This document shows positions 42,887 through 57,559 of a stretch of DNA of 64,000 nucleotides, in pieces. How positions within the stretch are numbered: position 1 is the first letter of the stretch; every line of letters begins with the position of its first letter. The translations under genes were made by a program, and so were the position numbers. This DNA is from an uncultured Bacilli bacterium (lineage in GTDB: Bacteria; Bacillota_I; Bacilli_A; RFN20; CAG-826). Below the pieces are notes generated by a model. That model saw only the letters and a list, made by a program, of their open reading frames with translations. It ran no database searches and had not been told where the DNA came from. The DNA is taken from the NCBI GenBank assembly GCA_944358985.1, contig CALVSI010000001.1:80156-144155 (forward strand). Direction: 5' to 3'.

Positions 42887-42910
42887 ACTCCTAAAAAGGG
42901 AGCTTTTTTT
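42887..42910 (+). terminator. Intrinsic terminator between convergent island genes
   Basis: CTCCT-aaaaa-GGGAG followed by T7. Confidence 0.55.
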
Positions 42911-42914
42911 GAAT

Positions 42915-43106
42915 TTAAGCCTGAATTAGCTTTTTGTCTTCTTCAAGCAACTCACAGAAGATCTCTTCGGTCTTATCCATGAATTCTTCATGACTCAAAA
43001 ATGGGCCATAAATTGAAGAAACCATATGCATGGCTTTAATGTTAAGGCGAATCAAGCGATCTAACTCATCATCAGGTTCGCCTGTGATTAATTGGTTTTT
43101 ATCCAT
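42915..43106 (-). CDS. Small acidic hypothetical protein (63 aa)
   Basis: SD AAAGGA upstream; follows the 59-aa membrane protein gene. Confidence 0.6.
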   Translation of the reverse strand: MDKNQLITGEPDDELDRLIRLNIKAMHMVSSIYGPFLSHEEFMDKTEEIFCELLEEDKKLIQA

Positions 43107-43133
43107 ATTAAAAGTCCTTTCTATTTTTGACTC

Positions 43134-43313
43134 TTAATATTCTTTTTTTGGTAAACAAGCAACAATAAGTAACCCTATCAATCCAAGGAACAAGCCTCCA
43201 AAAATCCATCCAACAACGCTCCTGTTTTTATATCCGGCGATGATTGGACATGCAATAACACTAATAACCGTATTGATGATACCTAAAACTGTAAAGATTG
43301 GTGATATTTCCAT
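43134..43313 (-). CDS. 59-aa two-helix membrane protein missing from the ORF track (MEISPIFTVLGIINTVISVIACPIIAGYKNRSVVGWIFGGLFLGLIGLLIVACLPKKEY)
   Basis: Strong SD GAGGAGG, hand translation; A..K.RS..GW...G..LG.IGL.IV..LP pattern. Confidence 0.8.
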   Translation of the reverse strand: MEISPIFTVLGIINTVISVIACPIIAGYKNRSVVGWIFGGLFLGLIGLLIVACLPKKEY

Positions 43314-43367
43314 TTTTATGCCTCCTCACAATAAACAATAAAGCACTTTTTTGGAAAAATGTTTTTT

Positions 43368-43386
43368 TGTCCCAACATTGGGTACA
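43368..43386. promoter_or_regulatory. Operator-like quasi-palindrome TGTCCCAACATTGGGTACA
   Basis: Related motifs at 53570-53588 and 55018-55037. Confidence 0.45.
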
Positions 43387-43391
43387 TTTAT

Positions 43392-43931
43392 TTAATCACC
43401 ATTAATAAAAATATAATCTTCGGCCACAACTTCTTCTTTTGAAATCGATGAATTAAAATATGATTCTTGTTTTAAATATCTATCTGTTATGAAATGAAGA
43501 ACTTTATTCTTAGAGCCTAACAGAAGTCTTTCTTTATCTAGTTGGCTCTCTATAAAAGGCCCATCTATTAAAAGATCTACAGAATTAACTAAATCTTTGT
43601 CCAACGCATCAATAGTTTTGCCAGAAAATAATATAATACCGAGGCCAGCTTCATGGATCCTTTTATTTAAAGATTTTAAACCAGATTGCAATGATGGTTC
43701 TCCTCCTGTGAGAGTTACTCCTTCAATCCCATATTTCTTTTTTGCCTCATAAATAATATCTAAAAGTTGTTCTTCTGTAAGAAGATGTTTAGGAACAAGA
43801 GGCTGCAAAGAAGGGTTTCCGCAACCTTTGCAGTTTAAATTACAACCCTGAAACCAAATGCAGCATCGGTCAAAAGGGCCTTCAATTTTAGTAAGCAATT
43901 TAATATAAGCAACGTTGAATTTATTCATCAA
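43392..43931 (-). CDS. Radical SAM 4Fe-4S protein, NrdG-like activase family, with no partner glycyl-radical enzyme nearby
   Basis: WFQGCNLNCKGC.NP (CxxxCxxC), GVTLTGGEP, DLLIDGPF, GS.N. Confidence 0.88.
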   Translation of the reverse strand: MMNKFNVAYIKLLTKIEGPFDRCCIWFQGCNLNCKGCGNPSLQPLVPKHLLTEEQLLDIIYEAKKKYGIEGVTLTGGEPSLQSGLKSLNKRIHEAGLGIILFSGKTIDALDKDLVNSVDLLIDGPFIESQLDKERLLLGSKNKVLHFITDRYLKQESYFNSSISKEEVVAEDYIFINGD

Positions 43932-45747
43932 ACGAAAATTCGAATCCGTTCTTTCCTAATTTAGTAACAAGCTTACTTCCTTTCAAAGAACGAAGGTCAT
44001 CCTTGTTTTCAAACAAGAACATTGCTAAAGGATCTAATAGTCTGTCATTAATAGCGTTAAGAATATCTCTTCCGCCTTTTGATGAATCAACAGATTTTAA
44101 GATATATTCGATTGCTTCCATTTCTTTTTCAAACTCTAATTCAAGCTTATATTTTTCTTCAATTCCTCTAATAACTGGTTTGAGCTTATTCTTACAAATT
44201 TTATATTGGAATTCTCTATCTTGAATGAAATTAAATGGAACAATATTGTTGTAACCAATTCTACCTAACAATTCAGGTCTCTTGAGTTCGTTATCGAAAT
44301 AATCTTTAACGATTTTAATAAATTCTTTGGCCACAGCTTCTTTGTCACTACTCATCGCAACTTGCTTTGCTCCAAGGTTGGAAGTAAATACAATTATTGT
44401 ATCGCTGAAATATACTGTTTCACCTTTAGAATCTGTCAATCTTCCATCTTCCAAAATTTGTAAGAAAATATCGAGAATTCTTGGGTTTGGTTTTGCAGCT
44501 TTTTCGATTTCATCAAAAAGAACAACGCTGAAAGGATGTTCTTTAATAGCGTTTGTTAATTGGCCGCCTTCTTCATATCCAACATATCCAGGAGCAGCAC
44601 CAATTAGTTTTTGATCACTATTCTCTTGAGCATATTCAGACATATCAAATCTTATGCAAGCTTGTTCATCTCCAAATAAGAATTTAGCTAATGCTTTTGA
44701 TAATTCGGTCTTGCCTACACCAGTTGGGCCAACAAAGAAGAACACACCTTTAGGCATAGATCTTGAAGAAGTTTTGTGCAAACCAGTTAAACCCATGTAA
44801 GCTTTAACCACTGTTTTTTCAATTTTTGCAATAGCTTCTTCTTGTCCAATAACTCTTTCAGAAAGTTCCCTCTTGATGTTTTTAACCCTGCTTTGTTCCA
44901 ATTTTTCCCATGGATTTTCTTTTTCTCCATACTTGAATAAATAGAACAATTTATCAAAAGTCATCTTATCTTCTTTTCTAGACATCCTAGAAAGTTGAAT
45001 GATTTCACGATTTGTAAAATCTTCAAGCATATCAATGCATTCAATATTTTCAGGATCTAATAATGAAGTTGTTCCTGTTTTGAGCTTTACCTCAAAGGAA
45101 TCTTCAATCTTTTGTATTATTTGCTTTCTTTCTTCTCTATCTGGTTTTTGTAAAGTAACTATTTCGACTTCTGGATTTCCTTGATAGAAAGAAAGTGGCA
45201 TGCCAGAGGCTTTATTTAGAATGATAATCACTACGCTTTCATTGCAATCTGAATTTAAGTAGTCAACCTTTCTATCTTTTAAAGCCTTCCCTAATAAGGT
45301 AATATTTTGCCTTTCATCATCTGATAATCCGTTTGCGCTGAATAAATATTCAGACCAGTTGATAATGAATGCGACTTTTCTCTTTTTATCAATTACGTTC
45401 TTGTAAACAATATTTAGTATTTCAGCAGGGCTTTTAAATAATCCTTGTTGAGTTTTTGGATTGATATCTTTTTCTTCTTCGTCATCTAAATCGTAAGAAT
45501 CACCTTCGACTTTTACTTCATCGGTTAAAGTTAATTTATCAACGGCGCCAGTTGCTCCTTCAACTCTATCCCAGTAAACAATGTCTTGATAATCCATGTC
45601 CTTAAACATAGCTTCAAGAAATTCTCTTAAAGTAACGATTTTATTCTTTTCATCAAGATAAACATCACCGACGTTGCCATCGATCATTACGCATTTCTTA
45701 ATACCTGCGCTTCTTTTGATTTTGTTGAAAGTGTTTTGTAAAGACAT
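43921..45747 (-). CDS. Clp/Hsp100-like AAA+ ATPase with an intact NBD2 and a degenerate N-terminal NBD
   Basis: RVIGQ..A, GPTGVGKTEL, RFDMSEY, GAAPGYVGY..GG.LT, LFDEIEKA, GRLTD; N-half has GNVGD instead of Walker A. Confidence 0.9.
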   Translation of the reverse strand: MSLQNTFNKIKRSAGIKKCVMIDGNVGDVYLDEKNKIVTLREFLEAMFKDMDYQDIVYWDRVEGATGAVDKLTLTDEVKVEGDSYDLDDEEEKDINPKTQQGLFKSPAEILNIVYKNVIDKKRKVAFIINWSEYLFSANGLSDDERQNITLLGKALKDRKVDYLNSDCNESVVIIILNKASGMPLSFYQGNPEVEIVTLQKPDREERKQIIQKIEDSFEVKLKTGTTSLLDPENIECIDMLEDFTNREIIQLSRMSRKEDKMTFDKLFYLFKYGEKENPWEKLEQSRVKNIKRELSERVIGQEEAIAKIEKTVVKAYMGLTGLHKTSSRSMPKGVFFFVGPTGVGKTELSKALAKFLFGDEQACIRFDMSEYAQENSDQKLIGAAPGYVGYEEGGQLTNAIKEHPFSVVLFDEIEKAAKPNPRILDIFLQILEDGRLTDSKGETVYFSDTIIVFTSNLGAKQVAMSSDKEAVAKEFIKIVKDYFDNELKRPELLGRIGYNNIVPFNFIQDREFQYKICKNKLKPVIRGIEEKYKLELEFEKEMEAIEYILKSVDSSKGGRDILNAINDRLLDPLAMFLFENKDDLRSLKGSKLVTKLGKNGFEFSFDE

Positions 45748-45758
45748 AGTATTTCCTC

Positions 45759-46844
45759 CTACTTTTTGTTCTTGTTCACATCAACATATTGATATTTTTG
45801 AGTTTGTATTTTATCTGGGTTCTCCCAATTAACTTCTTCATGAAGGATATTGATATCATAGATATTTTTTAGATCTTCAAGGAATGGTTCGATATCTTTT
45901 TTACATGCATGGCCTTCGTATTCATCAAAATGATACATGAATTTACCATTAAGCTGAATTTCAAATTCTGCCATTTGGCCTGTAGCTTTTAAAGCAACAA
46001 GCTTCACAACATTTCTCTCTTTGTCAATTTTCAAATTGTTCTTGGTATCAACAATAAAGCCTCTAGCCCTAATAGCTTTTATAATAACTTTAAGCGTTTC
46101 CTTTCTAATCTTTTCATCAGTTATCGACTCATTTGCAACTCTATTTGCTTCATCAATGGTTTTAACTTCGTTAAGAACTTCTTCGCTAACACCACTACTC
46201 TTAAGATTTTCTTTGATTTCGGCAATAGCGCTCTCTGTTTTCTTATTAAGCAATAAATCATATTCGCGTTGAGCCTTGGATAAAATCTCTTCAAAGCTCA
46301 ATTCGTTATTTTCTGAATTAATTAGTTCCCTATAAGCTAATTCTCTTAATGAAACATCTTCAATTTGGTTAATCTTGTTCAACAAATCTTGTGAATAATG
46401 TAAAACACCATTAGCCTTATCTAATAAAACGTTACCAGCATTTAGTATGCCTTCGTCAATCATTTGATCTATCACGGCAAGTTTTGAGCCGGTTAAATCA
46501 TTAACAATGCCAATTAGTTCAGATGATTGTCTTTCAAGTTCTTGTTTCGTCTTTAAAAAATCGTTATATCGAGAATCATGGTTGTTTGTAGAAAAAAACT
46601 TCTTAAGTTCCTGATACTTAACTAAAGTAGTCTTGAAATCATTAATTTTATTTTGGATAGTCTTCTTTGACTCTTGAAGATAACGCTCGTATTCGATTAC
46701 TTTTGCGCTTTCAAGCTTATTAGCAGTTTCGTGAATTCTTTCGATGGCTTTATCAATTCTGCACAAAGAATGAATAGCGGTATCGCATTCAGCCTGGATT
46801 CTAATCGTTAAGCCTTCATAATCAACTGTTACTTGTTGACTCAT
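45759..46844 (-). CDS. Coiled-coil protein with a C-terminal alpha/beta domain (DUF2997-like G.AC motif, tentative)
   Basis: Heptad-rich N-terminal two thirds; C-terminal AIRARGF.V...EFEIQLNG.....YEGHACKKDI..FLE.L; ATGA overlap with upstream gene. Confidence 0.75.
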   Translation of the reverse strand: MSQQVTVDYEGLTIRIQAECDTAIHSLCRIDKAIERIHETANKLESAKVIEYERYLQESKKTIQNKINDFKTTLVKYQELKKFFSTNNHDSRYNDFLKTKQELERQSSELIGIVNDLTGSKLAVIDQMIDEGILNAGNVLLDKANGVLHYSQDLLNKINQIEDVSLRELAYRELINSENNELSFEEILSKAQREYDLLLNKKTESAIAEIKENLKSSGVSEEVLNEVKTIDEANRVANESITDEKIRKETLKVIIKAIRARGFIVDTKNNLKIDKERNVVKLVALKATGQMAEFEIQLNGKFMYHFDEYEGHACKKDIEPFLEDLKNIYDINILHEEVNWENPDKIQTQKYQYVDVNKNKK

Positions 46845-48982
46845 TTTTCATCTTCCTCCAAATCGAATATTTCGTCAGACCATCTCCTTAAATCATCAGG
46901 AGTAAAGTTTGCTGTTCTATCTTCAGGATGAACGAAAGCATTTCTGTTTTCTCTAAAGTCGTGAAGATCGCTAATTACTTTTTTATCGATTATACCACTT
47001 CTTCTTGCTTCAGAAAGCATATCGGAAAGCTTTCCATCTAAATTGTATTTATTCTTCAGAAGCATTTCTAATTTCGCTGCAAGATTAACAAAAACAAATT
47101 GATAATCTCCTGAAACAATCTTCTTTTCTATTAATTCTTTCTTTATGTTTTTAGGGTTCTTCAAGGCATCTTCTACCATATTAATGTGGTCATTTATTAA
47201 TCCAAAAACACTCATAAAATCTTCATATTCAGCAAACAATTGAACGTTCGAAGCTTTAAAGAATGAAACGCTCTTTAATAAAGAGTGAGCAGTAGAATAT
47301 TCTGACTTAAAAGCTTGCACATTAAGATTTTCTTCTTCAAATGAATAATTTTTATAGTCTCGTATGTTTGTAATCGACTTGAGAGAGTTTATTCTTTCAT
47401 CAAGATTTAATAAATCCAGGAGAATTTTATTATCCGCTTCTCTATTTTCCAATAATTCTGGAACAGGATTGATGTATAAAACAACAACTTCTTTTGAGAA
47501 ACCAGAATTTAATAGAATCTCAAATGTTTTGACCTTTTTAGAAAACTCTTTTTCGCCACTAAATATAAGCTTCAATGAATCGTCTTGAGACATTCCGATG
47601 TATTTTGGAATCGATTGAGTTATTTTTAACGCGGTTTCGATATTTGATTCAGAAACATTATTTAAATAAGCTAGATAGTTGCTTTTTGTTAATTCTTTAT
47701 GCTTGGCAAGAATATTCGGATTTGTAATAGCTGCTGATTTCATTTCGTTTAAACAAACAATGTTTGTTTCATAATTATCTTTCATGTATCCGTTCATGAT
47801 TGAATATGCCAATTCATAATCTTTAGAAACGTCAGTTAATCTAACAAGTGTTTTGAAGTTTTCATCAGAGTAGCTAAGTTTGTCGGATAAGAATTCTTTT
47901 GCTAAGCTTCTAAGCTGTTCATTTTCAATTTTTAATTTCAAAACGAGAGGCAAGGTTATTGTTCCAAATTTATCAGAGCTAAAATCAAATGTTCCAGGAA
48001 CGTAACCATAAATAGAATCATGAAGATCAACTTGAACGAACTCAATATACTTGTTCAATGTTTCCATGGAACGTTTGTCAGAATAAACTAATCCACTATT
48101 TGAATTATAGTTACCTTTGGTAAATAGCAATTTATTCTTTTGTTTTAATACTTCATCAATATCTTTAGGAATCAATAGGTCATTAATCTTTTCGCTATCA
48201 AATAGATCGAACGAAATATGAGGAGCATATTCTGACTTAAATTTAAATTTGTTCTTATATGCTACAGAGGCAGTAAATGTTTCGTTATTGTAGTGAGCTT
48301 CTGCGAACTTTTGAAGAACATCATCATTAAAGTTAATTGAAACAGCGGTTCCTTTGATTTCCATATCGCAGTCGTACTTTGCTGTCCAATTTTCGTATTT
48401 ACCAATAGTTTCAACTTTAGTGATAATTTCTTCTTTTTTAATGTCGACACCGCGTTTGCCTTTATTTAAATTAAGGAAAGCTTCAACATCTTTATTGCAT
48501 TTAAATGATGAAACAAACTCAGGAGTGAGCGCACAATCCATCAAAGGCCTTGGTTCCAAATCAGTATCAATAGATAAAGACAATTCATTCTTGGCTATAT
48601 TATAAAACACAGCAATTTTAGATTCCTTATTTACTCCAGTAGGAATAGATTCTTCAGCAAAGATCTTTTTGCCTTTTTCTGTAAACCTGAAATAGCCAAT
48701 AGAATAGGTTTCGAATTCATTTTTATAAAAACCATCACAGTTCAAGATATCTTGGCTTATTAATTTTTCAAGTTCATCCGCAAATATATATTGCAAGTTC
48801 TTCGGAACACCAAAATTTTCCAATAAATTGGAAAGTCCTACAGTTCTATCTTTAGATTCATTTATCAACACAAGCAAAATATAGGCAATTCCGCTTGGTT
48901 TTTTTACCTCGGAATACGTCACGAGTTCATTCATTTTAAAGAAGGGAAATTGAATTGATGTTTCTAATTTAAACTTATCCAT
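46841..48982 (-). CDS. 713-aa protein with a wHTH-like N-terminal region and a C-terminal HEPN RNase domain (start reassigned to MDKFK at 48982)
   Basis: SD AAGGAGG; 8-bp overlap with the helicase stop; C-terminal KLEMLL...LHDFRENRNAFVH (RxxxxH). Confidence 0.8.
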   Translation of the reverse strand: MDKFKLETSIQFPFFKMNELVTYSEVKKPSGIAYILLVLINESKDRTVGLSNLLENFGVPKNLQYIFADELEKLISQDILNCDGFYKNEFETYSIGYFRFTEKGKKIFAEESIPTGVNKESKIAVFYNIAKNELSLSIDTDLEPRPLMDCALTPEFVSSFKCNKDVEAFLNLNKGKRGVDIKKEEIITKVETIGKYENWTAKYDCDMEIKGTAVSINFNDDVLQKFAEAHYNNETFTASVAYKNKFKFKSEYAPHISFDLFDSEKINDLLIPKDIDEVLKQKNKLLFTKGNYNSNSGLVYSDKRSMETLNKYIEFVQVDLHDSIYGYVPGTFDFSSDKFGTITLPLVLKLKIENEQLRSLAKEFLSDKLSYSDENFKTLVRLTDVSKDYELAYSIMNGYMKDNYETNIVCLNEMKSAAITNPNILAKHKELTKSNYLAYLNNVSESNIETALKITQSIPKYIGMSQDDSLKLIFSGEKEFSKKVKTFEILLNSGFSKEVVVLYINPVPELLENREADNKILLDLLNLDERINSLKSITNIRDYKNYSFEEENLNVQAFKSEYSTAHSLLKSVSFFKASNVQLFAEYEDFMSVFGLINDHINMVEDALKNPKNIKKELIEKKIVSGDYQFVFVNLAAKLEMLLKNKYNLDGKLSDMLSEARRSGIIDKKVISDLHDFRENRNAFVHPEDRTANFTPDDLRRWSDEIFDLEEDEK

Positions 48983-51900
48983 TAATTCTTGCCTCCTTAT
49001 CACCAATGATGTCGGTGTCATCTAAGACTTTCCCATAGCGCTCTATTGTAGATAAAATCTCTTCATATACTCTGAAGTTATGTTGATCCATTCCTGGTCT
49101 TCCATATACATCTGGTAAGTCGATTACACCTTTTGATTCAAGGTAATTTCTATTGCCAACAATCACCAGCATTCTTCTAGCTCTTGATAAAGCAACATTA
49201 ATTCTTTGATATGCCAAAATGAACCCAGGATTACTTCTTCTTGGATCTTCTGGATTTCTAACAGTTGAAAGAATAATGATATCTCTTTCGTCTCCTTGGA
49301 AATCATCAACCGTGGAAACAATCATTTTCTCTGCATCTGTCTTAAAGGCATCTGTCTTAACTTTTTCACTCTTTATAACTTCTTTGATTCTTCTGGCTTG
49401 GTCACCATATGTGCAGATAATGCCAATGCTCAATCTTTCATGTGAAGGATTCTCTTTGAAATAGGTATTAAGCTTTCTTAATAATTCCGCCACTACTTTT
49501 GCTTCACCAGAATTGTACATTGATGTTGAATCAGCTTCATGAGTTTCGTTGCCTTTGCAATCAATAAAATAGATGTGCTTACTTGGTTCGATAATATTTC
49601 TGCCGTTTGAGAAAAGCTTAATGTTGTGCTGCTTTGCATTATTTTGACCTGCCCACCCTAATTTAAGCTCATTTCTATAGAAATGGTTGAAAACATTCAT
49701 GATGTGCTCGTGGCATCGATATTGTTGGACAAGCATTGTTTTATAGCTGGAAGGGATCTTTTCAAATAATGTCTTAAAGAAGCACTCCTCGTAAAGCTCC
49801 GTGAATCTTTTATTAATGTCTTTGTTTATGATGTTCTCGTCCAATCCTTCAAAATCATCATCGCGAAGTTTGGAAAATTCATACATAGGTGGAAGCTGTC
49901 TGTGATCACCAACCAAAATAATTGTTTTTCCATAAAGAATAGGGATTAGCAAATCGATAAAACTGGATTTTGAGACTTCATCAATGATGACAACATCAAT
50001 TCCCGCAGACTTAATATCAATGCTCTCTATGTTGTATTCAGATAAAGAATCTACGTTTCTACTTGTAAAGTAATCACTAGATGTGCAGGTAATGCCAAAG
50101 ACATTAGCGTTTTCAAAAAGCTCTTTTGTATAGTCTTTTCTGTCTCCTTCAATGACATCCTCTGTTGTGATGTAATTTGAAATCTTTTCATACATCGGAA
50201 TCTTTTCTTTGTTTTCTGATTCCTTTTTACTGTAGTCAGTATCTAATTCATCCCATTTACGCTTAATAATGATTAAAGCCTCATCTATATCATTAAATGG
50301 TTCTGAGATTTCGAAGTCCCTGAAGAATTGGATAATGCCGCTTTCTAACTTATATTTGTTTTCTTGAACTTCTTTAACATCGTTTCTGTCTTGAATATCA
50401 ATAATTTGCTCGTTCAAGCCTTTAATAACCTTTTTGCGAGATTCTATTTCTATATCAATTTTTTCTTGTTCGGATTCAACCTTGGTTAATTCATCTTTAA
50501 CTTTTTCAATATAGCTGTATTTAAGTTCCGAGATTTGCTCTTTTAATGAAATAATTAGTTCATAAATTGAAGCTGAGTTTGCAACTAAATATGAGAAATT
50601 AAAAATTTCTCCTAGTTTCAAATCGTCTGGCATCTTTTCACTGTCAGCATCTATTTGTTTTTTGATCTCAATCAATTCTTTTCTTAGTCTATCGTATTCG
50701 TCTTGTTTATCAGGGAGAACTTCATCGAAATCATCTTTGCACTTATCCATGCTGGTTTTAATTTCTTTTCTTTTAATTTCTAAAAGTGTCTTGTTTGACT
50801 CAGGATTCAAAATAGCTAGTTCCCTGTTAATTTCTTCTGGTTTTATTGCGTTAACAAGTTTAACTAAAACACCAATATCTTTATCAAGGAAAGTGTCTTG
50901 AGTGAATAAAGGCGACAAAGAATTTCGGTATTCCACTATTAAATCTGCCTTAACATCTTCATCTGGTTTTAAATTATCATTTTCGATATGTCGTATCGTC
51001 CTTCTGAGAACATCTATATCGATTCTTAATGTGTCCTTTTTATTGTTAAGACCAGCAATTTCTGAATTAATAACAGCTGATTTCTTTTCTAAATCTTTGA
51101 TCTCGTTATTAGCAGCTTCAAGAACCTTAATAGATTTATCAACTTTAGATTTTAAAAGTTTGAGTAAATCATAGTTTTCTCTAAACTCTTCCTTGTTCTT
51201 TTTGAAGTTTCTATAACGTTCTATAGATTTCTTCATATTTGAAGATATATTTGTATAAAAATTATCAACGAGATATTTTGGATCGTACTCATTGTCTTTC
51301 TTATTAATCGAAGGAATAAGTCTTAGCGGAACAATTTCAGCAATTTTTGGTAGACGTTCAAAAACGTTATCAATAGCTTTATGAGTTTCGCTAGAGATCA
51401 ACACTTTTTTACCTTTTTTAACCATTTGAGCAACGGTTTCAGCTATAACCTGTGTCTTTCCTGTTCCTGGAGGACCTTGCAATAAGAAGATACCATTGCT
51501 TGAAACAGCTTTTCTCACTGCTTCTTTTTGCATGTCATTAAGCGAATCTAAATACCAAGTCCAATCGCTAGGCTCAGCTTGAACGCTGTTAAGCTCTTCA
51601 GGATTAAACAAATATGTTGAAAGATATGGATTTTTAACATATCCGGAATAAAAGTTTTTAAGAGCCTGTTCTTGTCTGGCTATCTTAGCTTTTTCAGCAC
51701 GGCTATCATAAACGATAAATGAGCAAGAATTAATAATCTTAATCTGTTTGTCACTAATGATGTTATTAGCATCGCCGAGTCTAAAATACAAAGCAAAACG
51801 AATTATTGTTTCTTCATCAATTACTTTTTGTTTGTCGGCTCGTAAAGATTCATCAAGGGATTCTTTAGCAGAGATTTTTTCGTTTCTAATATCATCTTTA

Positions 51901-53486
51901 TATTTATTAGATATTTCGGTTTCTTTCTCGCCGCGATAAATTTTCAATTTATTAGCATATTCAATTCTTGTTTTTCTTTCAAATTCAGCTAGAAGTTCTT
52001 CATTTCTTTCCTTATATAGCGAAGTAATATCTATCTTGCTATATTCTTTTTCAAGAAGCTTGCTAATTCTCTCTTGGTATTCGGTTTCTTTCTCTTTTTT
52101 GTCTTTTGGATTTTTCTTAACAATCTCTTTTTTGATTTGAGATTGCAGATTTTGAATCTTGGCTAAAATTTTAGTATCTTTGTTTTCTTTAACATCCGAG
52201 TCTAGAGACAAAGCTAATTCTTTTTTCTTGTTTTTCAAAGAAGACTCAATCTCAGAGTCATATTCTTTTTCAAGCTTTTTAACTAATGCCTCTACTTCAG
52301 AAGCTATCTTTTTTTCATATTTTGAATCTATAGATTTGTATTTTTCATCTAATTCAATGTCGTGTTCGTATTCAAGTTCGGCTAAATGTTCTTCTGGAAG
52401 TATGTAATATGAAAAAACTTTAAATCTATCACCTAGAGCATAACCAGCAGAAAGCATATCACCAATTTTAGGGTGTTCATCGTTTCTTATTATGCTCATT
52501 GGATCTAACGAAGTAATAAACACATTATCGCTAGCTAATGAACGAATGGCACGTTCTTCTTCGCTTATGTTCTTTCCTCTTTTTAATACCTTAGCAGCTT
52601 CAAAACTCTTTTTATTTCTATCAATCGTTAATCTGACAACAGGGAATTCTTCGGCTTCTTCAATTTTGTCGGACAATAGAATCATTTCACCATAACTAAA
52701 TTCCGGTCTTTTATCTAAAAGATAATCTTCATAAATAGATGAATTTCTTCTGTATTCTTTTCTATTTACTGCATAGGCTTTCACAAATTGAGCACTATCT
52801 AATTTGAAGTTTCTCTTTGATTGCTCTTGAAGATAATAATTCCTGAACTCAATATATTTATTCCATTCTTCGTATTTCTTTCTCACTTCTTCAGGTTGAG
52901 AAACGGTATAACAGGAGCGGATCAATTCATAAACATTATTTGGAGTAAAATATGTTTCATTGTAATCAACGTTAGAAATGGACCAAATACTTACATTAAA
53001 TGTACCGTTTACACCACTTCTTTTTTCTACAGCAAAGGAATTGCACGCCATTGCTGAAACAACCAAATCATGAGGAGATCTCATTGAATCATCAATTAGC
53101 TGAATGCCTTTTACTTCAAATAATTTTTGTTTGCCACCTTCCACTATTTTGCCGATTAAAATAACATTCTGATTATCTGGCAAGTAGGAACGCATAGACA
53201 TTGTCAATTCTGGTCTAATTACAACATTATCCAAGAATTGCGTTTTTCCACTTTTCGATTCATTCTTCTCTCTAAGAAAATTAGGACAAGAAATGTAATA
53301 CTTTTTTGCCATTCCGGTTGGAAAACAAGTTTCAATAAATCTTTGAAAATTATTCGTTTGTCTTCTTAAAGGGATTCTTTTCTGAAGATTATTAAATTGA
53401 CTTCTAAGCGAATCTCCAAAAAGTTCATTCTTTGTAGAAATGTCTCTATCGAGTCTATCAGCAAAAGAGATAAATAAATAAGCCAT
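48975..53486 (-). CDS. SF1 helicase, UPF1/DNA2/NAM7-like, with long coiled-coil insertions (1503 aa)
   Basis: LNDMQKEAV, QGPPGTGKT, SETHKAIDNV, IIDEVSK, LVGDHRQLPP, QYR, TVDDFQGDERD, RINVALSRAR. Confidence 0.93.
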   Translation of the reverse strand: MAYLFISFADRLDRDISTKNELFGDSLRSQFNNLQKRIPLRRQTNNFQRFIETCFPTGMAKKYYISCPNFLREKNESKSGKTQFLDNVVIRPELTMSMRSYLPDNQNVILIGKIVEGGKQKLFEVKGIQLIDDSMRSPHDLVVSAMACNSFAVEKRSGVNGTFNVSIWSISNVDYNETYFTPNNVYELIRSCYTVSQPEEVRKKYEEWNKYIEFRNYYLQEQSKRNFKLDSAQFVKAYAVNRKEYRRNSSIYEDYLLDKRPEFSYGEMILLSDKIEEAEEFPVVRLTIDRNKKSFEAAKVLKRGKNISEEERAIRSLASDNVFITSLDPMSIIRNDEHPKIGDMLSAGYALGDRFKVFSYYILPEEHLAELEYEHDIELDEKYKSIDSKYEKKIASEVEALVKKLEKEYDSEIESSLKNKKKELALSLDSDVKENKDTKILAKIQNLQSQIKKEIVKKNPKDKKEKETEYQERISKLLEKEYSKIDITSLYKERNEELLAEFERKTRIEYANKLKIYRGEKETEISNKYKDDIRNEKISAKESLDESLRADKQKVIDEETIIRFALYFRLGDANNIISDKQIKIINSCSFIVYDSRAEKAKIARQEQALKNFYSGYVKNPYLSTYLFNPEELNSVQAEPSDWTWYLDSLNDMQKEAVRKAVSSNGIFLLQGPPGTGKTQVIAETVAQMVKKGKKVLISSETHKAIDNVFERLPKIAEIVPLRLIPSINKKDNEYDPKYLVDNFYTNISSNMKKSIERYRNFKKNKEEFRENYDLLKLLKSKVDKSIKVLEAANNEIKDLEKKSAVINSEIAGLNNKKDTLRIDIDVLRRTIRHIENDNLKPDEDVKADLIVEYRNSLSPLFTQDTFLDKDIGVLVKLVNAIKPEEINRELAILNPESNKTLLEIKRKEIKTSMDKCKDDFDEVLPDKQDEYDRLRKELIEIKKQIDADSEKMPDDLKLGEIFNFSYLVANSASIYELIISLKEQISELKYSYIEKVKDELTKVESEQEKIDIEIESRKKVIKGLNEQIIDIQDRNDVKEVQENKYKLESGIIQFFRDFEISEPFNDIDEALIIIKRKWDELDTDYSKKESENKEKIPMYEKISNYITTEDVIEGDRKDYTKELFENANVFGITCTSSDYFTSRNVDSLSEYNIESIDIKSAGIDVVIIDEVSKSSFIDLLIPILYGKTIILVGDHRQLPPMYEFSKLRDDDFEGLDENIINKDINKRFTELYEECFFKTLFEKIPSSYKTMLVQQYRCHEHIMNVFNHFYRNELKLGWAGQNNAKQHNIKLFSNGRNIIEPSKHIYFIDCKGNETHEADSTSMYNSGEAKVVAELLRKLNTYFKENPSHERLSIGIICTYGDQARRIKEVIKSEKVKTDAFKTDAEKMIVSTVDDFQGDERDIIILSTVRNPEDPRRSNPGFILAYQRINVALSRARRMLVIVGNRNYLESKGVIDLPDVYGRPGMDQHNFRVYEEILSTIERYGKVLDDTDIIGDKEARING

Positions 53487-53569
53487 GAAGTGTCCTTTGA
53501 AATAATTTTACAACAAGCGTGTGCGTGTTTGTTAATTATTTTACTCGGTTAACAACTTTTTTGTTGTTT

Positions 53570-53588
53570 TGTGCCCAAAATGGTAACA
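53570..53588. promoter_or_regulatory. Operator-like quasi-palindrome TGTGCCCAAAATGGTAACA upstream of the helicase operon
   Basis: TGT-N13-ACA flanked by T/A tracts; similar to 43368-43386. Confidence 0.45.
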
Positions 53589-53599
53589 AAAAAGGAATA

Positions 53600-53803
53600 T
53601 CAGTCGATTGATATTCCGTCGATACCAAGTATCTTGCATATTCTGAAGAATGTGGAGATGTCAGTACCGTGATTAAGAATTCGACTCACGGTCTTGCGAC
53701 TCGCACCAAGTTCTCTACCAAAGTTCTCTTGGTTTTTGAACTTATCTTTAATGCGACACTTGATTTCTTCCATAATTTTATTGGAAGAGTAGCAACTATT
53801 CAT
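53600..53803 (-). CDS. XRE/Cro-like helix-turn-helix regulator
   Basis: Q..FG.ELG.SR.TVS.ILN......I.T...IC..LG; SD GGAGGAGG. Confidence 0.85.
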   Translation of the reverse strand: MNSCYSSNKIMEEIKCRIKDKFKNQENFGRELGASRKTVSRILNHGTDISTFFRICKILGIDGISID

Positions 53804-53888
53804 ATAATCATGCCTCCTCCATTCAGCTGAGGCCTAGCTTATTAGTTGCAATCATATTTTATAATTTTGTTTCTCTTATGCAAACTTT

Positions 53889-54896
53889 TTAATACAAATC
53901 GACATCTCCTTCGATTACTTCATTTATGAATTTATGTATTCCTCTAAGAAAATATTGATCATAATTCCATTGAGAATCATATGGAGATTCATCAAAACAT
54001 AGTTCGCAGAACTCATACGAGAAATTGATTAAACCATCGATTATTTCTTCAACTTTTTCAAAAGATAAATTTACCCAATTAGCGGCATATCCACCATTTG
54101 GAAATTTGTGCTCTTCGTCTCCATAGACAAACAATTTAAGGAACTTTTTAACTTCCGGATTTCTCTCGAAAGGATTGTTATATAAATCATTATATGATTT
54201 AAGTGAGTTGTGTTTTGTGAAATTACTCAATAAAGAGATGAGCAAAAAATAACGATAATTTTTAAGACCAAAAATCGGATTCTTTTTCCCATATTCATTA
54301 GCAAATTTTCTTTGAACGAAACGAGTAATTTCATTGAATCGGCCTAAATCTTCATCATTCCTATAGCCATGTTTTTTTAATACATAAAACATTACACGCA
54401 AGTATTCTGCATGAACCCTTTGAATGTACTGGACCAAAATTGATCTAAGCAATTCATTATACTTTACAATGCGATAACTTTTAGCGATTGTAGCGGTTTC
54501 CAAAATCTCGTCATAATCATCCATATTCGAAGTAAATGCAATACGGCTTGATATAGAATTCTGTTCAACTTCTTCAGGGGTTTTTATGCTTTTAATCATA
54601 GGCACGTATTCATTTTTCCAGTCACTTAGTAAACCTTTAAGGCTGTCAACAAGATAGTTCACCGAGTAGTCAGAACGTTTAGATTTATTTGGAATGAAAT
54701 AATGAGTATTTCTTTTTGCTGTCATAAAATCATCAAAAGGAAAATAATCGCCTATACTGCAATTTTCAAATTCAAACGCTTTTTTAAGCCTTTTAGTATC
54801 GATAGAAAGTTTTCCATTATGTCTATGAAATCCATAGAACAAGATGTCGCTTTCGCCAATTCCGTCTTTAAAATAATCAAATAACTGTTTTTTCAT
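53889..54896 (-). CDS. Hypothetical 335-aa protein with a possible divergent HEPN motif (LSNFTKHN)
   Basis: Long ORF, helical C-terminal half; N..KH variant of the HEPN motif, lacking the canonical Arg. Confidence 0.7.
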   Translation of the reverse strand: MKKQLFDYFKDGIGESDILFYGFHRHNGKLSIDTKRLKKAFEFENCSIGDYFPFDDFMTAKRNTHYFIPNKSKRSDYSVNYLVDSLKGLLSDWKNEYVPMIKSIKTPEEVEQNSISSRIAFTSNMDDYDEILETATIAKSYRIVKYNELLRSILVQYIQRVHAEYLRVMFYVLKKHGYRNDEDLGRFNEITRFVQRKFANEYGKKNPIFGLKNYRYFLLISLLSNFTKHNSLKSYNDLYNNPFERNPEVKKFLKLFVYGDEEHKFPNGGYAANWVNLSFEKVEEIIDGLINFSYEFCELCFDESPYDSQWNYDQYFLRGIHKFINEVIEGDVDLY

Positions 54897-55622: not shown

Positions 55623-55699
55623 TGGCACCCTCGAGGCGACTCGAACGCCTGACCCACAGCTTAGAAGGCTGTTGCTCTATCCAGCTGAGCTACGAGGGT
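55623..55699 (-). tRNA. tRNA-Arg (anticodon UCU), CCA encoded
   Basis: Acceptor ACCCTCG/CGAGGGT, D-arm GCTC-AGCTGGATA-GAGC, anticodon arm ACAGC-CTTCTAA-GCTGT, T-arm AGGCG-TTCGAGT-CGCCT. Confidence 0.97.
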
Positions 55700-55795: not shown

Positions 55796-57559
55796 TCATT
55801 TATCTTGATTATGAATTTTGCTGAATAGAGCAACAGCCACTTCGTTAGGCAGCAATTGTTTTAGTTCGTCTATTTTTGCATTACGAAGCATATCTAAATC
55901 AGGATATACTTTCAGTATATTTTCTTTTCTTTTATCCCCTAGCCCTTTAATTCCATCAAAAATTGATTTATACATGGCTTTATTTCTTTTATAAATATGG
56001 TAACTAATTGCAAAACGATGGACTTCGTCTTGCATTCTAGTTAATAAGAAAAATAATTTTTTATCATTTATTTGATATGTATTTCCTTTATAATCGATTA
56101 ATCCCTCGGTTTGGTGTTTGTTGTTTTTGTATAGACCAAAAATAGGAATCAAAAGATTTAAATTATCTAATACAGTTTTTCCAGCTTTTACTTGATTTAA
56201 ACCACCATCTAGTAAAATTAAATCAGGTTTATTTAAATTATTTTCTTTTACTCTTTTATAATGTCTTGTCATTACTTCAATCATTGATTGTAAGTCATCG
56301 CGAGCTTCTTGGTGTTCAATTTTAAATTTACGATATAGTTTTTTTTGCGGTTCTCCATTGATGAATGCGACTAAAGCTCCGACAGGTTCGTAACCTTGTG
56401 TATGCGAATTATCAATAAGTTCTATATAATATGGTGTTTTAATTTTAAGCATATTCCCTAATTCATTTAACAATTTCACTTTATCATCATTTAATCTAGC
56501 GCTCAAAAAATATTCATCCAATGCGTTATCAGCGTTAATTTTTGCTTGACAGACTAATTCAAATAATTTTCCTTTTTCGACGCTGGTGAAACTACAATCA
56601 TAAATTTGTGATATTTCTTTTATTACTTTTTCATTATTAATTATTATTTCTTTAGGAAGCGGATATAAGTTATAAAACTGATTAATAATATTTTTTAAAG
56701 TATCAACTTCGTTTAAAAATATTTCTACAACATAGCTTTTTTTGGAAAGCAATAATCCTCGCCTATACATTAAAATAGAAACTGATAAATAATTTCTTCG
56801 CACACTATATGCATAAATGTCGCGATCAATCTTATCAAATAATTCAACATTTTGTTTTTGATTGATATGTTCTATTGACTGCAAAATGTTTTTGTAATTT
56901 TGTGCTAATTCAAAATTATCTTGATTTGATGCTTCTAACATTTTATTTTTAATTTCATCATATTTTTCTTTATTATTTCCATTTAAAAAGTCTTTGATTT
57001 GATTAATTAATTTTTGATATTCTTCAGTTTTAATATTTTTATTTATACAAGGTGCTAAACATTGATTTAAATGATAATAAAGGCAAGGCGTGTTTGGAAT
57101 ATTTTTGCATTTCCTCAACGGAAACAATTTATTTAGCAAATCTACCATTTCATATGCGGCTGTGGAGTTTGGAAATGGACCAAAATATGAATATTTTCTA
57201 TCTTTATTGTTTCTTTTTATTGTTAAATATGGATCTTTATCATTTTTAATAGCAATGTATGGGTAGTGTTTATCATCGGTTAATAAAATGTTAAACCGCG
57301 GATAATGAGTTTGAATAAGATTCATTTCTAATATCAAAGCTTCTTTTTCATTATTTGTGATAATTGTTTCAAAATGGTCAACCTCGCTTACCATTTTCAT
57401 CACTTTTCCCACTTGCGGCTTTAAAAAATATTGGCTGACTCTTTTAAATAAATTTTTAGCTTTCCCAACATAAATAATTTTATTATCAATGTTATACATT
57501 AAATAAACACCAGGAAGCGGTTTTAAATTACTAATTAAATTTTTGATTTTGTCATTCAT
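55796..57559 (-). CDS. uvrC: Excinuclease ABC subunit C
   Basis: PGVY, IYVGKAKNL..RV, P.FNI.L.DDK.YPY, DNSH, LDGG..Q, QDEVHRFAI. Confidence 0.97.
   Translation of the reverse strand: MNDKIKNLISNLKPLPGVYLMYNIDNKIIYVGKAKNLFKRVSQYFLKPQVGKVMKMVSEVDHFETIITNNEKEALILEMNLIQTHYPRFNILLTDDKHYPYIAIKNDKDPYLTIKRNNKDRKYSYFGPFPNSTAAYEMVDLLNKLFPLRKCKNIPNTPCLYYHLNQCLAPCINKNIKTEEYQKLINQIKDFLNGNNKEKYDEIKNKMLEASNQDNFELAQNYKNILQSIEHINQKQNVELFDKIDRDIYAYSVRRNYLSVSILMYRRGLLLSKKSYVVEIFLNEVDTLKNIINQFYNLYPLPKEIIINNEKVIKEISQIYDCSFTSVEKGKLFELVCQAKINADNALDEYFLSARLNDDKVKLLNELGNMLKIKTPYYIELIDNSHTQGYEPVGALVAFINGEPQKKLYRKFKIEHQEARDDLQSMIEVMTRHYKRVKENNLNKPDLILLDGGLNQVKAGKTVLDNLNLLIPIFGLYKNNKHQTEGLIDYKGNTYQINDKKLFFLLTRMQDEVHRFAISYHIYKRNKAMYKSIFDGIKGLGDKRKENILKVYPDLDMLRNAKIDELKQLLPNEVAVALFSKIHNQDK

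Follow-up and report, generated by a model that had tools for sequence, protein, structure and literature searches.

The question raised by this locus is what five tightly packed genes, encoding a helicase, a putative nuclease, a coiled-coil protein, a Clp-like ATPase and a small radical S-adenosylmethionine (SAM) enzyme, are doing side by side in the genome of an uncultured Bacilli bacterium. The genes occupy positions 43392-53486 of a 64,000-nucleotide stretch of contig CALVSI010000001.1 (assembly GCA_944358985.1), which we refer to as the window and to which all coordinates apply unless another locus is named; the genome it belongs to is 1.17 Mb and 96% complete. An earlier inspection made without database searches (the sequence-only reading) had proposed that the five genes form an undescribed defence or conflict operon. 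We find the same five-gene order across phyla, and we estimate a probability of about 55% that the cassette is a widespread, horizontally mobile conflict system, most likely RNA-targeting, that acts against phages or other mobile elements.

The five co-oriented open reading frames (ORFs) lie on the minus strand and in their longest forms encode 1503, 726, 361, 608 and 179 amino acids. Gene 1 (48975-53486) encodes a superfamily 1B helicase of 1503 residues that resembles UPF1, IGHMBP2 and Sen1 and matches Pfam AAA_11 and AAA_12. The longest ORF of gene 2 (726 residues) runs from 46841 to 49021, and the methionine at its codon 14 (M14) is the start in 16 of 18 aligned homologues, which places the gene at 46841-48982 and gives a product of 713 residues consisting of a scaffold and a C-terminal HEPN RNase domain of the DUF4145 type. 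Gene 3 (45759-46844, 361 residues) specifies a coiled-coil protein that has a conserved alpha/beta domain at its C terminus, and gene 4 (43921-45747, 608 residues) a single-ring AAA+ ATPase related to the second nucleotide-binding domain (NBD2) of ClpB (AAA_2, 3.4e-51). Gene 5 encodes a minimal radical-SAM enzyme of the glycyl-radical-activase type (Fer4_12, 6.4e-26); an ATG at 43928 gives 178 residues (43392-43928), and a TTG at 43931 gives the longest ORF, 43392-43931, with 179. The helicase stop codon and the M14 start of gene 2 overlap by 8 bp, genes 2 and 3 share an ATGA overlap, an 11-bp gap with a GGAGG lies ahead of the AAA+ gene, and the stop of that gene overlaps the start of gene 5 by 8 bp (ATG) or 11 bp (TTG). 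The close packing and the overlaps, which favour translational coupling, are thus found as the sequence-only reading described them once gene 2 is started at M14, and its description of the catalytic motifs as intact is also borne out, as the motifs could be located in the helicase (GPPGTGKT at residues 671-678, DEVS at 1169, GDHRQL at 1193, QYR at 1255, TVDDFQG at 1392 and VALSRA at 1431), in the HEPN domain (RNAFVH at 680-685, numbered from M14), in the AAA+ protein (GPTGVGKT at 340, the GYVG pore loop at 387, the Walker B sequence VVLFDE at 408, the sensor 1 TSN at 455 and GGR at 558) and in the radical-SAM enzyme (CNLNCKGC at 30-37, a CxxxCxxC motif, and GGEP at 76).

The closest relatives of the helicase in the PDB are IGHMBP2, Sen1, UPF1 and DNA2, and it matches the PADLOC profile MkoA (PDLC03920) at 1.4e-97, with residues 428-1483 aligned to positions 402-1099 of the 1112 in the profile. 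A lysine- and glutamate-rich helical insertion of about 490 residues separates Walker A (671) from motif II (1169), and a profile search of the PDB with the N-terminal ~640 residues gave no match. The C terminus of the gene 2 protein matches DUF4145, described as a HEPN family (PMC3710099), at 1.5e-4 with 22.2 bits, just under the Pfam cut-off of 23.1; many of its homologues bear PF13643 in precomputed annotation, and the R, N and H of the RNxxxH motif are invariant across 18 aligned homologues. An AlphaFold2 model of the protein (predicted local distance difference test score, pLDDT, 88.7) begins with a hairpin and three helices, is rich in beta structure in its middle, and is alpha-helical in the C-terminal half, which ends in the HEPN domain. 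By eye the N terminus resembles a helix-turn-helix (HTH), and the hairpin and three helices of the model would fit a winged HTH; the whole-chain model gave no Foldseek match at E<=1e-3, and sequence and profile searches of the PDB returned nothing for gene 2. Of the 'winged HTH-HEPN' label applied to this gene, the second half therefore stands, on the invariant motif and the DUF4145 match, and the first is unconfirmed.

Gene 3 has long coiled-coil helices over residues 12-259 and a conserved alpha/beta domain at about 245-345, in which R247, F263, G289, G300, Y329 and P343 are invariant and C314 nearly so (alignment A2). It belongs to no family in Pfam, PADLOC or NCBIfam, searching the PDB by sequence and by profile yielded only helical-bundle noise, and the Protein Atlas holds only 'hypothetical' clusters for genes 2 and 3. 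Its AlphaFold2 model (pLDDT 85.5) has its best Foldseek matches, all weak (E>=4e-3) and thus a lead only, among AdoMetDC, the N-terminal domain of spermine synthase and TBP-like folds. The family is a large one, with 366 clusters (50% identity) at E<=1e-3 among 1.84 billion representatives, the distant members sharing only the C-terminal ~150 residues.

Residues 281-583 of the gene 4 protein match NBD2 and the small domain of ClpB, ClpC and ClpE in the PDB. The NCBIfam ClpB model matches at 7e-75 on the NBD2 region, far below the family cut-off, and ClpA and ClpV are matched in the second ring only; the PADLOC profiles PDC-M37B (3.9e-33, residues 224-463) and DolB (2.5e-20) match just the ATPase core (residues ~224-476). 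There is a single Walker A, and a regular-expression search for the ClpP-docking tripeptide [ILV]G[FL] found none; residues 1-280 form a family-specific domain which, by eye only, may be a degenerate ATPase domain. The same genome encodes a second Clp-type ATPase (G000:C3:41188-42009), whose identity to the NBD2 part of gene 4 is 42%.

Gene 5 matches Pfam Fer4_12 and Radical_SAM, and its six best NCBIfam matches are NrdG, NrdG2, PRK11121, NrdG3, the YjjW activase and PflA, all under their cut-offs (for NrdG, 68.4 bits against 126.1). A signature of EGP..R...W.QGC...C..C.N together with GGEP is invariant in 24 sequences spanning all of the clades, and PDB sequence and profile searches gave one weak match, to SkfB. 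A housekeeping NrdG role for gene 5 is ruled out, as the NrdD of the host genome is on a different contig with its own Fer4_12 activase gene adjoining; at G000:C4:6156-9711 an ordinary NrdD is indeed accompanied by a small radical-SAM gene. A candidate glycyl-radical motif at the C terminus of the AAA+ protein was also rejected, because it is not conserved. Complex prediction for the C-terminal domain of gene 3 with the radical-SAM enzyme gave no answer (score 0.00) and carries no weight either way.

The case that these genes are one unit comes from their neighbourhoods. In 38 of the 40 related loci with enough sequence the five genes are intact and in identical order (10 of 11 loci from the genome_contigs collection, 16 of 17 genome regions, five of five from IMG/VR, two of two from metagenomes and five of five from plasmids), which indicates that the cassette is more than a chance arrangement and upholds the proposal of a single conserved unit. 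It is found in Firmicutes and Mollicutes, in prophages from IMG/VR, and on plasmids of Alpha-, Beta- and Gammaproteobacteria. With gene 2 as the query, genome_contigs yielded 12 loci, in metagenome-assembled genomes labelled Erysipelotrichaceae, Christensenellales, Bacilli, Clostridia, Anaeroplasma and others; where there is enough sequence, genes 1-4 are in order in 11 of 11 and gene 5 follows in 10. At L008 (15428-16696) a DUF4143/AAA_14 ATPase stands after gene 4 instead of the radical-SAM gene, and at L005 (5520-10029) two ORFs, of 932 and 582 amino acids, make up the helicase. Of 399 genomes sampled from the phylum, 40 match a profile of the gene 3 family (A2), and in all 17 regions retrieved from those 40 the genes for the helicase, the coiled-coil protein, the AAA+ protein and the radical-SAM enzyme follow one another as in the window; the second position is taken by an ORF of 717-806 amino acids in 15 of the regions and by two ORFs in L060 and L061; at L058 (11631-12096) the radical-SAM gene is frameshifted and split between two frames. 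Within the window's own family the cassette is present in one of 42 other genomes.

More distant searches extend the same picture. Scanning IMG/VR with the AAA+ protein gave six full-length relatives, of which five lie in complete loci and one in a locus cut by the contig start; a scan of the same database with the distant homologue P0177 found none. A distant gene 3 homologue, P0201, leads to two metagenome loci (L078 and L079) with the same five genes, at 27% identity for the helicase, 41% for the AAA+ protein and 34% for the radical-SAM enzyme. The DNA common to these two loci covers exactly the five genes, and the PP-loop and second radical-SAM genes downstream are ruled out as members because the similarity stops at gene 5. 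A tblastn search against plasmids matched ten records, in Leisingera, Acinetobacter, Moellerella, Photobacterium and Polaromonas, and the order is kept in all five of these that were inspected; RefSeq annotates them, in order, as 'AAA domain-containing protein', 'PIN domain-containing protein', 'hypothetical protein', 'AAA family ATPase' and '4Fe-4S single cluster domain-containing protein', generic names with no system name among them. The coiled-coil protein has no tblastn match in 50,697 phage records, and when 5,426 E. coli genomes were searched at the DNA level with genes 3-5 of Moellerella, all that turned up were ClpB/Clp cross-matches, and no genome reached 80% cover.

Not all parts of the cassette are conserved alike, and the variation is informative about its likely target. 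At the C terminus of gene 2, the window's clade has a HEPN domain with RNxxxH, as do relatives of ~30% identity; the metagenome and proteobacterial plasmid versions have a PIN_4 domain (9e-22), in agreement with the RefSeq PIN annotation on five plasmids, and the Spiroplasma-like Mollicutes have neither an Rx4-6H motif nor a Pfam nuclease domain. An RNase III-like gene of ~166 amino acids follows gene 5 in seven of 11 genome_contigs loci and four of six viral loci (L005:15600-16100, with equivalents in L006, L007, L010-L013, L066, L067, L069 and L070); this gene, which carries the signatures E..L...GD and D..EA, is missing in the window as well as in L003, L004, L008 and L009. The exchange of HEPN for PIN at one position, together with the optional RNase III gene, strengthens the view that RNA is the target. 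Upstream of the helicase, a protein of 300-335 amino acids that we call F5 alternates with an HTH protein of ~175 amino acids. In the loci L005-L013, identity to the window is 90-92% for the AAA+ protein, 68-71% for the radical-SAM enzyme, 62-69% for the coiled-coil protein, 61-68% for the helicase (75% over the C-terminal piece in L005) and 53-57% for the scaffold, and the AAA+ protein is 88-99% identical across L003-L013 and L061. A fall from ~90% for the AAA+ protein to 53-57% for the scaffold in the same loci is an unusually steep gradient for one operon. Judged by their sequences, the coiled-coil, AAA+ and radical-SAM trio is the best-conserved part of the cassette, and such uneven conservation would be typical of conflict systems.

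The settings in which the cassette is found are those of mobile and defence-associated genes, which supports the sequence-only reading. Flanks differ between loci, and a large serine recombinase adjoins the cassette in the viral loci L066, L068, L069 and L071, while in L067 terminase, portal and ParB-methyltransferase genes lie downstream. The carrier plasmids include conjugative and non-mobilisable ones, and their neighbouring genes include transposases, ArdA, an integrase and toxin-antitoxin genes (Phd/YefM antitoxin). Among 131 flanking ORFs from 15 loci, PADLOC profiles identify PDC-S01 (4-5), type II methyltransferases (2), NERD helicases (2) and HTH_VI (3), and Pfam identifies resolvases (3), BrxL (1) and SNF2 (1), all as raw counts. 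Further genes annotated 'radical SAM protein' lie near the cassette on plasmids L080 (NZ_CP032284.1, 13484-15466) and L084 (NZ_AP024856.1, 1-925), the one on the Acinetobacter plasmid accompanied by a small AAA ATPase. In Pseudomonas aeruginosa, core defence hotspot 1 is described as flanked by core genes for a DUF4011 (SF1-type) helicase and a radical-SAM protein (PMC10250203), which may be a parallel pairing of the two activities.

Is this, then, a system that already has a name? The closest likeness is to the CoCoNuT systems (Bell et al., eLife 2024, PMC11090510), in which, as described there, UPF1-like CnuH helicases with a helical insertion past Walker A are paired with CnuE and operate with an McrB-like GTPase, McrC and coiled-coil proteins. 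Going by that published description rather than by the CnuH and CnuE sequences, the cassette has several features in common with CoCoNuT types II and III: the SF1 helicase is UPF1-like, and its Walker A is followed by a large insertion of helical or coiled-coil character; the next gene, often in an overlapping frame, encodes a protein that ends in a nuclease (HEPN among others); and the pair is joined by a coiled-coil protein encoded separately and by a motor of the AAA+ class. RNA targeting is predicted there too. The nuclease protein of CoCoNuTs begins with an HTH-type domain, for which the N terminus of the gene 2 protein is a candidate by eye and in its model. The cassette differs in that its motor is a ClpB-NBD2-type unfoldase and not an McrB GTPase, in that it lacks McrC and TerY-P, and in that it adds a radical-SAM enzyme as well as a coiled-coil protein whose C-terminal domain is globular and conserved; the only McrB signal was E 0.0037 on the AAA+ core, Pfam gave no McrC or DUF2357 match, and the article text of the CoCoNuT report (PMC11090510) contains no mention of 'Clp' or 'radical SAM'. 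Gene 1 also fits MkoA of Mokosh type I, with which the cassette shares the logic of a helicase with a separate nuclease, but the match leaves out the N-terminal 400 positions of that profile, no PLD/MkoB match was found in six proteins scanned with Pfam and PADLOC, and the cassette has three extra conserved genes.

The remaining likenesses involve single proteins. Gene 4 shares a ClpB-type ATPase core with DolB of Dodola and with PDC-M37B, but there is no DolA (DUF6414) match and none to PDC-M37A in any protein, and unlike ClpB, ClpC and ClpA it has only one ring (NBD2), with no ClpP-docking tripeptide as in ClpA and ClpC. Gene 5 shares with the glycyl-radical activases NrdG, PflA and YjjW the minimal Fer4_12 fold, CxxxCxxC, GGEP and a glycine-rich EGP..R motif preceding the cluster, but it scores far below their cut-offs and the cassette contains no glycyl-radical enzyme. 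The prokaryotic viperins (pVips), radical-SAM defence enzymes with models in PADLOC 2.0, likewise belong to a putative anti-phage setting, but their PADLOC matches to gene 5 are weak (4.4e-6 to 9.3e-4) and cover only the cluster-binding core (~70-90 residues, within 27-112), in a protein of 178 amino acids compared with profiles of 257-474 positions. Neither the five-gene cassette nor the trio is described in PADLOC 2.0, NCBIfam 20 or the literature searched, a search that lay outside the CoCoNuT supplements, whose operons of CnuH relatives may bear on novelty. The claim of an undescribed system thus holds in so far as no named system matches the whole cassette, and has to be narrowed in that the helicase-nuclease pair is of a known kind; because helicases paired with winged HTH-nuclease proteins have already been described (CnuH-CnuE and MkoA-like), only the trio and the combination are new.

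If the cassette is a conflict system, genes 1 and 2 would be its sensor and effector, a pair of the CnuH-CnuE or MkoA kind, with the UPF1-like helicase and its long helical insertion translocating on RNA and the C-terminal RNase of the scaffold (HEPN or PIN, with the optional RNase III) cutting it. Genes 3-5 would be one control machine in which the coiled-coil protein, as the adaptor, holds a hexameric unfoldase of the ClpB-NBD2 type to the helicase and scaffold, and the unfoldase may remodel a protein, whether a partner or one of the invader's. The radical-SAM enzyme would then alter a protein substrate in the complex by radical chemistry, licensing or resetting the nuclease; a protein seems the probable substrate because the closest families are the glycyl-radical activases, which act on proteins. 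The sequence-only reading had guessed at a comparable part for the trio, in arming, remodelling or modifying the complex. In a more specific form of this idea the trio is a radical-based protein switch, in which an oxygen-sensitive radical mark gates the RNA helicase-RNase effector; Spiroplasma-like bacteria would later have retained this ancient machine for a core cellular role, minus its nuclease motif. The radical, or a modification derived from it, would sit on a partner, the best candidate being the C-terminal domain of the coiled-coil protein with its invariant glycine and cysteine residues, and the Clp-type unfoldase would present or reset the modified partner. We regard this switch as a speculative and rather improbable proposal; if true, prokaryotic immunity would gain its first reported case of control by a protein radical.

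Several observations weigh against the conflict reading. The strongest concern the Spiroplasma-like Mollicutes, a family of organisms with genomes of 0.7-2.4 Mb that read TGA as tryptophan. Three Spiroplasma-like genera have gene 3 in 20 of 20, three of three and 17 of 21 genomes, and four more genera, each with a single genome, have it too; the order of the cassette is kept in all 12 regions retrieved from this family (L045-L056), and it adjoins rpsI in seven of the 12 (from three genera), with rplM also present in five of those seven. Genus-wide presence, the ribosomal protein gene neighbourhood and the lack of a HEPN motif together suggest a vertically inherited function, and this version looks cellular rather than like accessory defence; a purely accessory role, as first proposed, does not predict it. 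In one of the genera the radical-SAM gene is a 368-residue fusion with a C-terminal Redoxin/AhpC-TSA domain (L045:6038-7144, L046:5838-6944 and L047:11887-12993, in translation table 4; Pfam 6e-11 in L047), a domain that may be a built-in redox partner. Other points on the same side are that the winged HTH of gene 2 and the contacts between the five proteins are predicted only, that no PADLOC, NCBIfam or Pfam model names gene 3, or gene 2 beyond its HEPN domain, and that no glycyl-radical domain or motif was found in any partner protein. Evidence for expression is confined to contigs from four metatranscriptome libraries (X15-X18), at 90-99% similarity to the window; between them they extend over each of the five genes and across the four junctions (X16 record 11, X16 record 12, X15 record 4 and X18 record 29), and the flanks that they leave uncovered are uninformative. 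As such libraries can contain DNA, and a contig spanning two genes proves no single transcript, they are a weak hint. A promoter scan was uninformative, with 43 sites against 53.3 expected from shuffles. What the sequences themselves show is the order of the genes, the identity of their domains, the intact motifs, the exchange of effectors and the mobile and defence settings; an RNA target, assembly into one complex, the adaptor role, a protein as substrate of the radical-SAM enzyme and any anti-phage activity are inferred.

The Mollicute version is the main reason to consider that the core is a cellular machine for surveillance and repair of RNA or ribonucleoproteins, acting for instance on stalled or damaged translation components, and that the nuclease-bearing copies of prophages and plasmids branched off from it, weaponised or selfish. 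In its favour, housekeeping roles are established for UPF1-like helicases and for Clp-type unfoldases, and occurrence in all or most of the genomes searched in three small-genome genera, the rpsI and rplM neighbours and a gene 2 without a recognisable nuclease would all follow from such a machine. Outside that family, however, the distribution is patchy, as with the single occurrence in the window's own family, and gene 3 is absent from the genomes searched of five other Mollicute genera (0 of 7, 0 of 6, 0 of 3, 0 of 4 and 0 of 4); the cassette lies in prophages and on plasmids with unrelated flanks, its RNases are swappable, and two copies within one Spiroplasma-like genus are themselves broken by stop codons (G416 and G419). 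We consider a cellular role of this kind unlikely, if worth serious attention. That the cassette instead serves the element that carries it, by excluding competing phages or plasmids, by post-segregational stabilisation or by taking over host RNA metabolism in the prophage cycle, would accord with its place beside an integrase at the prophage end in L066, L068, L069 and L071 and within the terminase- and portal-bearing prophage L067, with its presence on conjugative and non-mobilisable plasmids alike, and with an HTH regulator upstream. Yet it is hard to separate from a defence role, as the 'moron' defence genes of prophages are located in the same place, and it sits poorly with chromosomal copies in non-mobile contexts and with there being no evident antitoxin-like partner, such that we think it quite doubtful. 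Least probable is that two independent systems, a helicase-RNase pair like Mokosh or CnuHE and a module of AAA+, radical-SAM and coiled-coil proteins, simply stand side by side: the PADLOC matches do fall in two unrelated families (MkoA for gene 1, PDC-M37B and DolB for gene 4), and CoCoNuT helicase-nuclease pairs are described with other partners (PMC11090510), but all of the loci found with gene 3, the AAA+ protein or gene 2 as bait had the five ordered positions, down to 27-41% identity, the ATGA overlap of genes 2 and 3 crosses the supposed boundary, and L078 and L079 have DNA in common over exactly the five genes. We accordingly favour the mobile, probably RNA-targeting conflict system.

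The immediate surroundings of the cassette in the window show how far the mobile block extends. Its nearest relative, L003, is 92% identical in DNA over a common block of 42908-53850 only, with unrelated flanks, and this block consists of a 67-amino-acid ORF upstream, the five genes, and a 63-amino-acid ORF downstream. The upstream ORF (53600-53803, minus strand) is 98.5% identical in L003 and 77.6% in L004 and is probably an HTH regulator, being HTH-like by eye; with no Pfam match at E<=1e-3, its earlier assignment to the XRE family is not borne out. It is followed by a terminator-like hairpin (53617-53594). The downstream ORF (42915-43106, minus strand) is 77.6% identical in L003 and has no Pfam match. 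Further upstream lies the F5 gene (53889-54896, minus strand, 335 amino acids), which has no Pfam, PADLOC or NCBIfam match and belongs to no known family; homologues at 29-41% identity are found directly upstream of the cassette in L003-L006, L013, L060 and L067, and as divergent relatives recur in that position in seven other loci, F5 may be a sixth, fast-evolving component. A tRNA-Arg(TCT) gene at 55623-55699 lies between UvrC and the cassette, and the sequence-only reading had taken the region to be an island anchored at a tRNA; the tRNA is present, but no integrase was found near the cassette and a repeat search around the tRNA gave no att-like direct repeat, so that description is not borne out. 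A 19-nucleotide part of the tRNA-Arg (55667-55685) has an inverted copy at 55820-55838 with 95% complementarity, ~130 nucleotides upstream of the tRNA and within the 3' end of uvrC.

Helicase-nuclease modules related to eukaryotic UPF1 and MOV10 are a growing theme in bacterial immunity, and to our knowledge none has been joined to a Clp-type unfoldase or a radical-SAM enzyme; the trio, which has no known counterpart in defence, is what distinguishes this cassette, and the generic names given to its genes in RefSeq mark a gap in annotation. The versions with HEPN, with PIN and with no nuclease motif constitute a natural experiment in effector swapping, and the presence of the cassette throughout whole Spiroplasma-like genera offers a way into the question of how a conflict system turns into a cellular function or arises from one. 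More broadly, the cassette may bring to light a way, new to biology, in which radical chemistry and protein unfolding serve the surveillance of nucleic acids.

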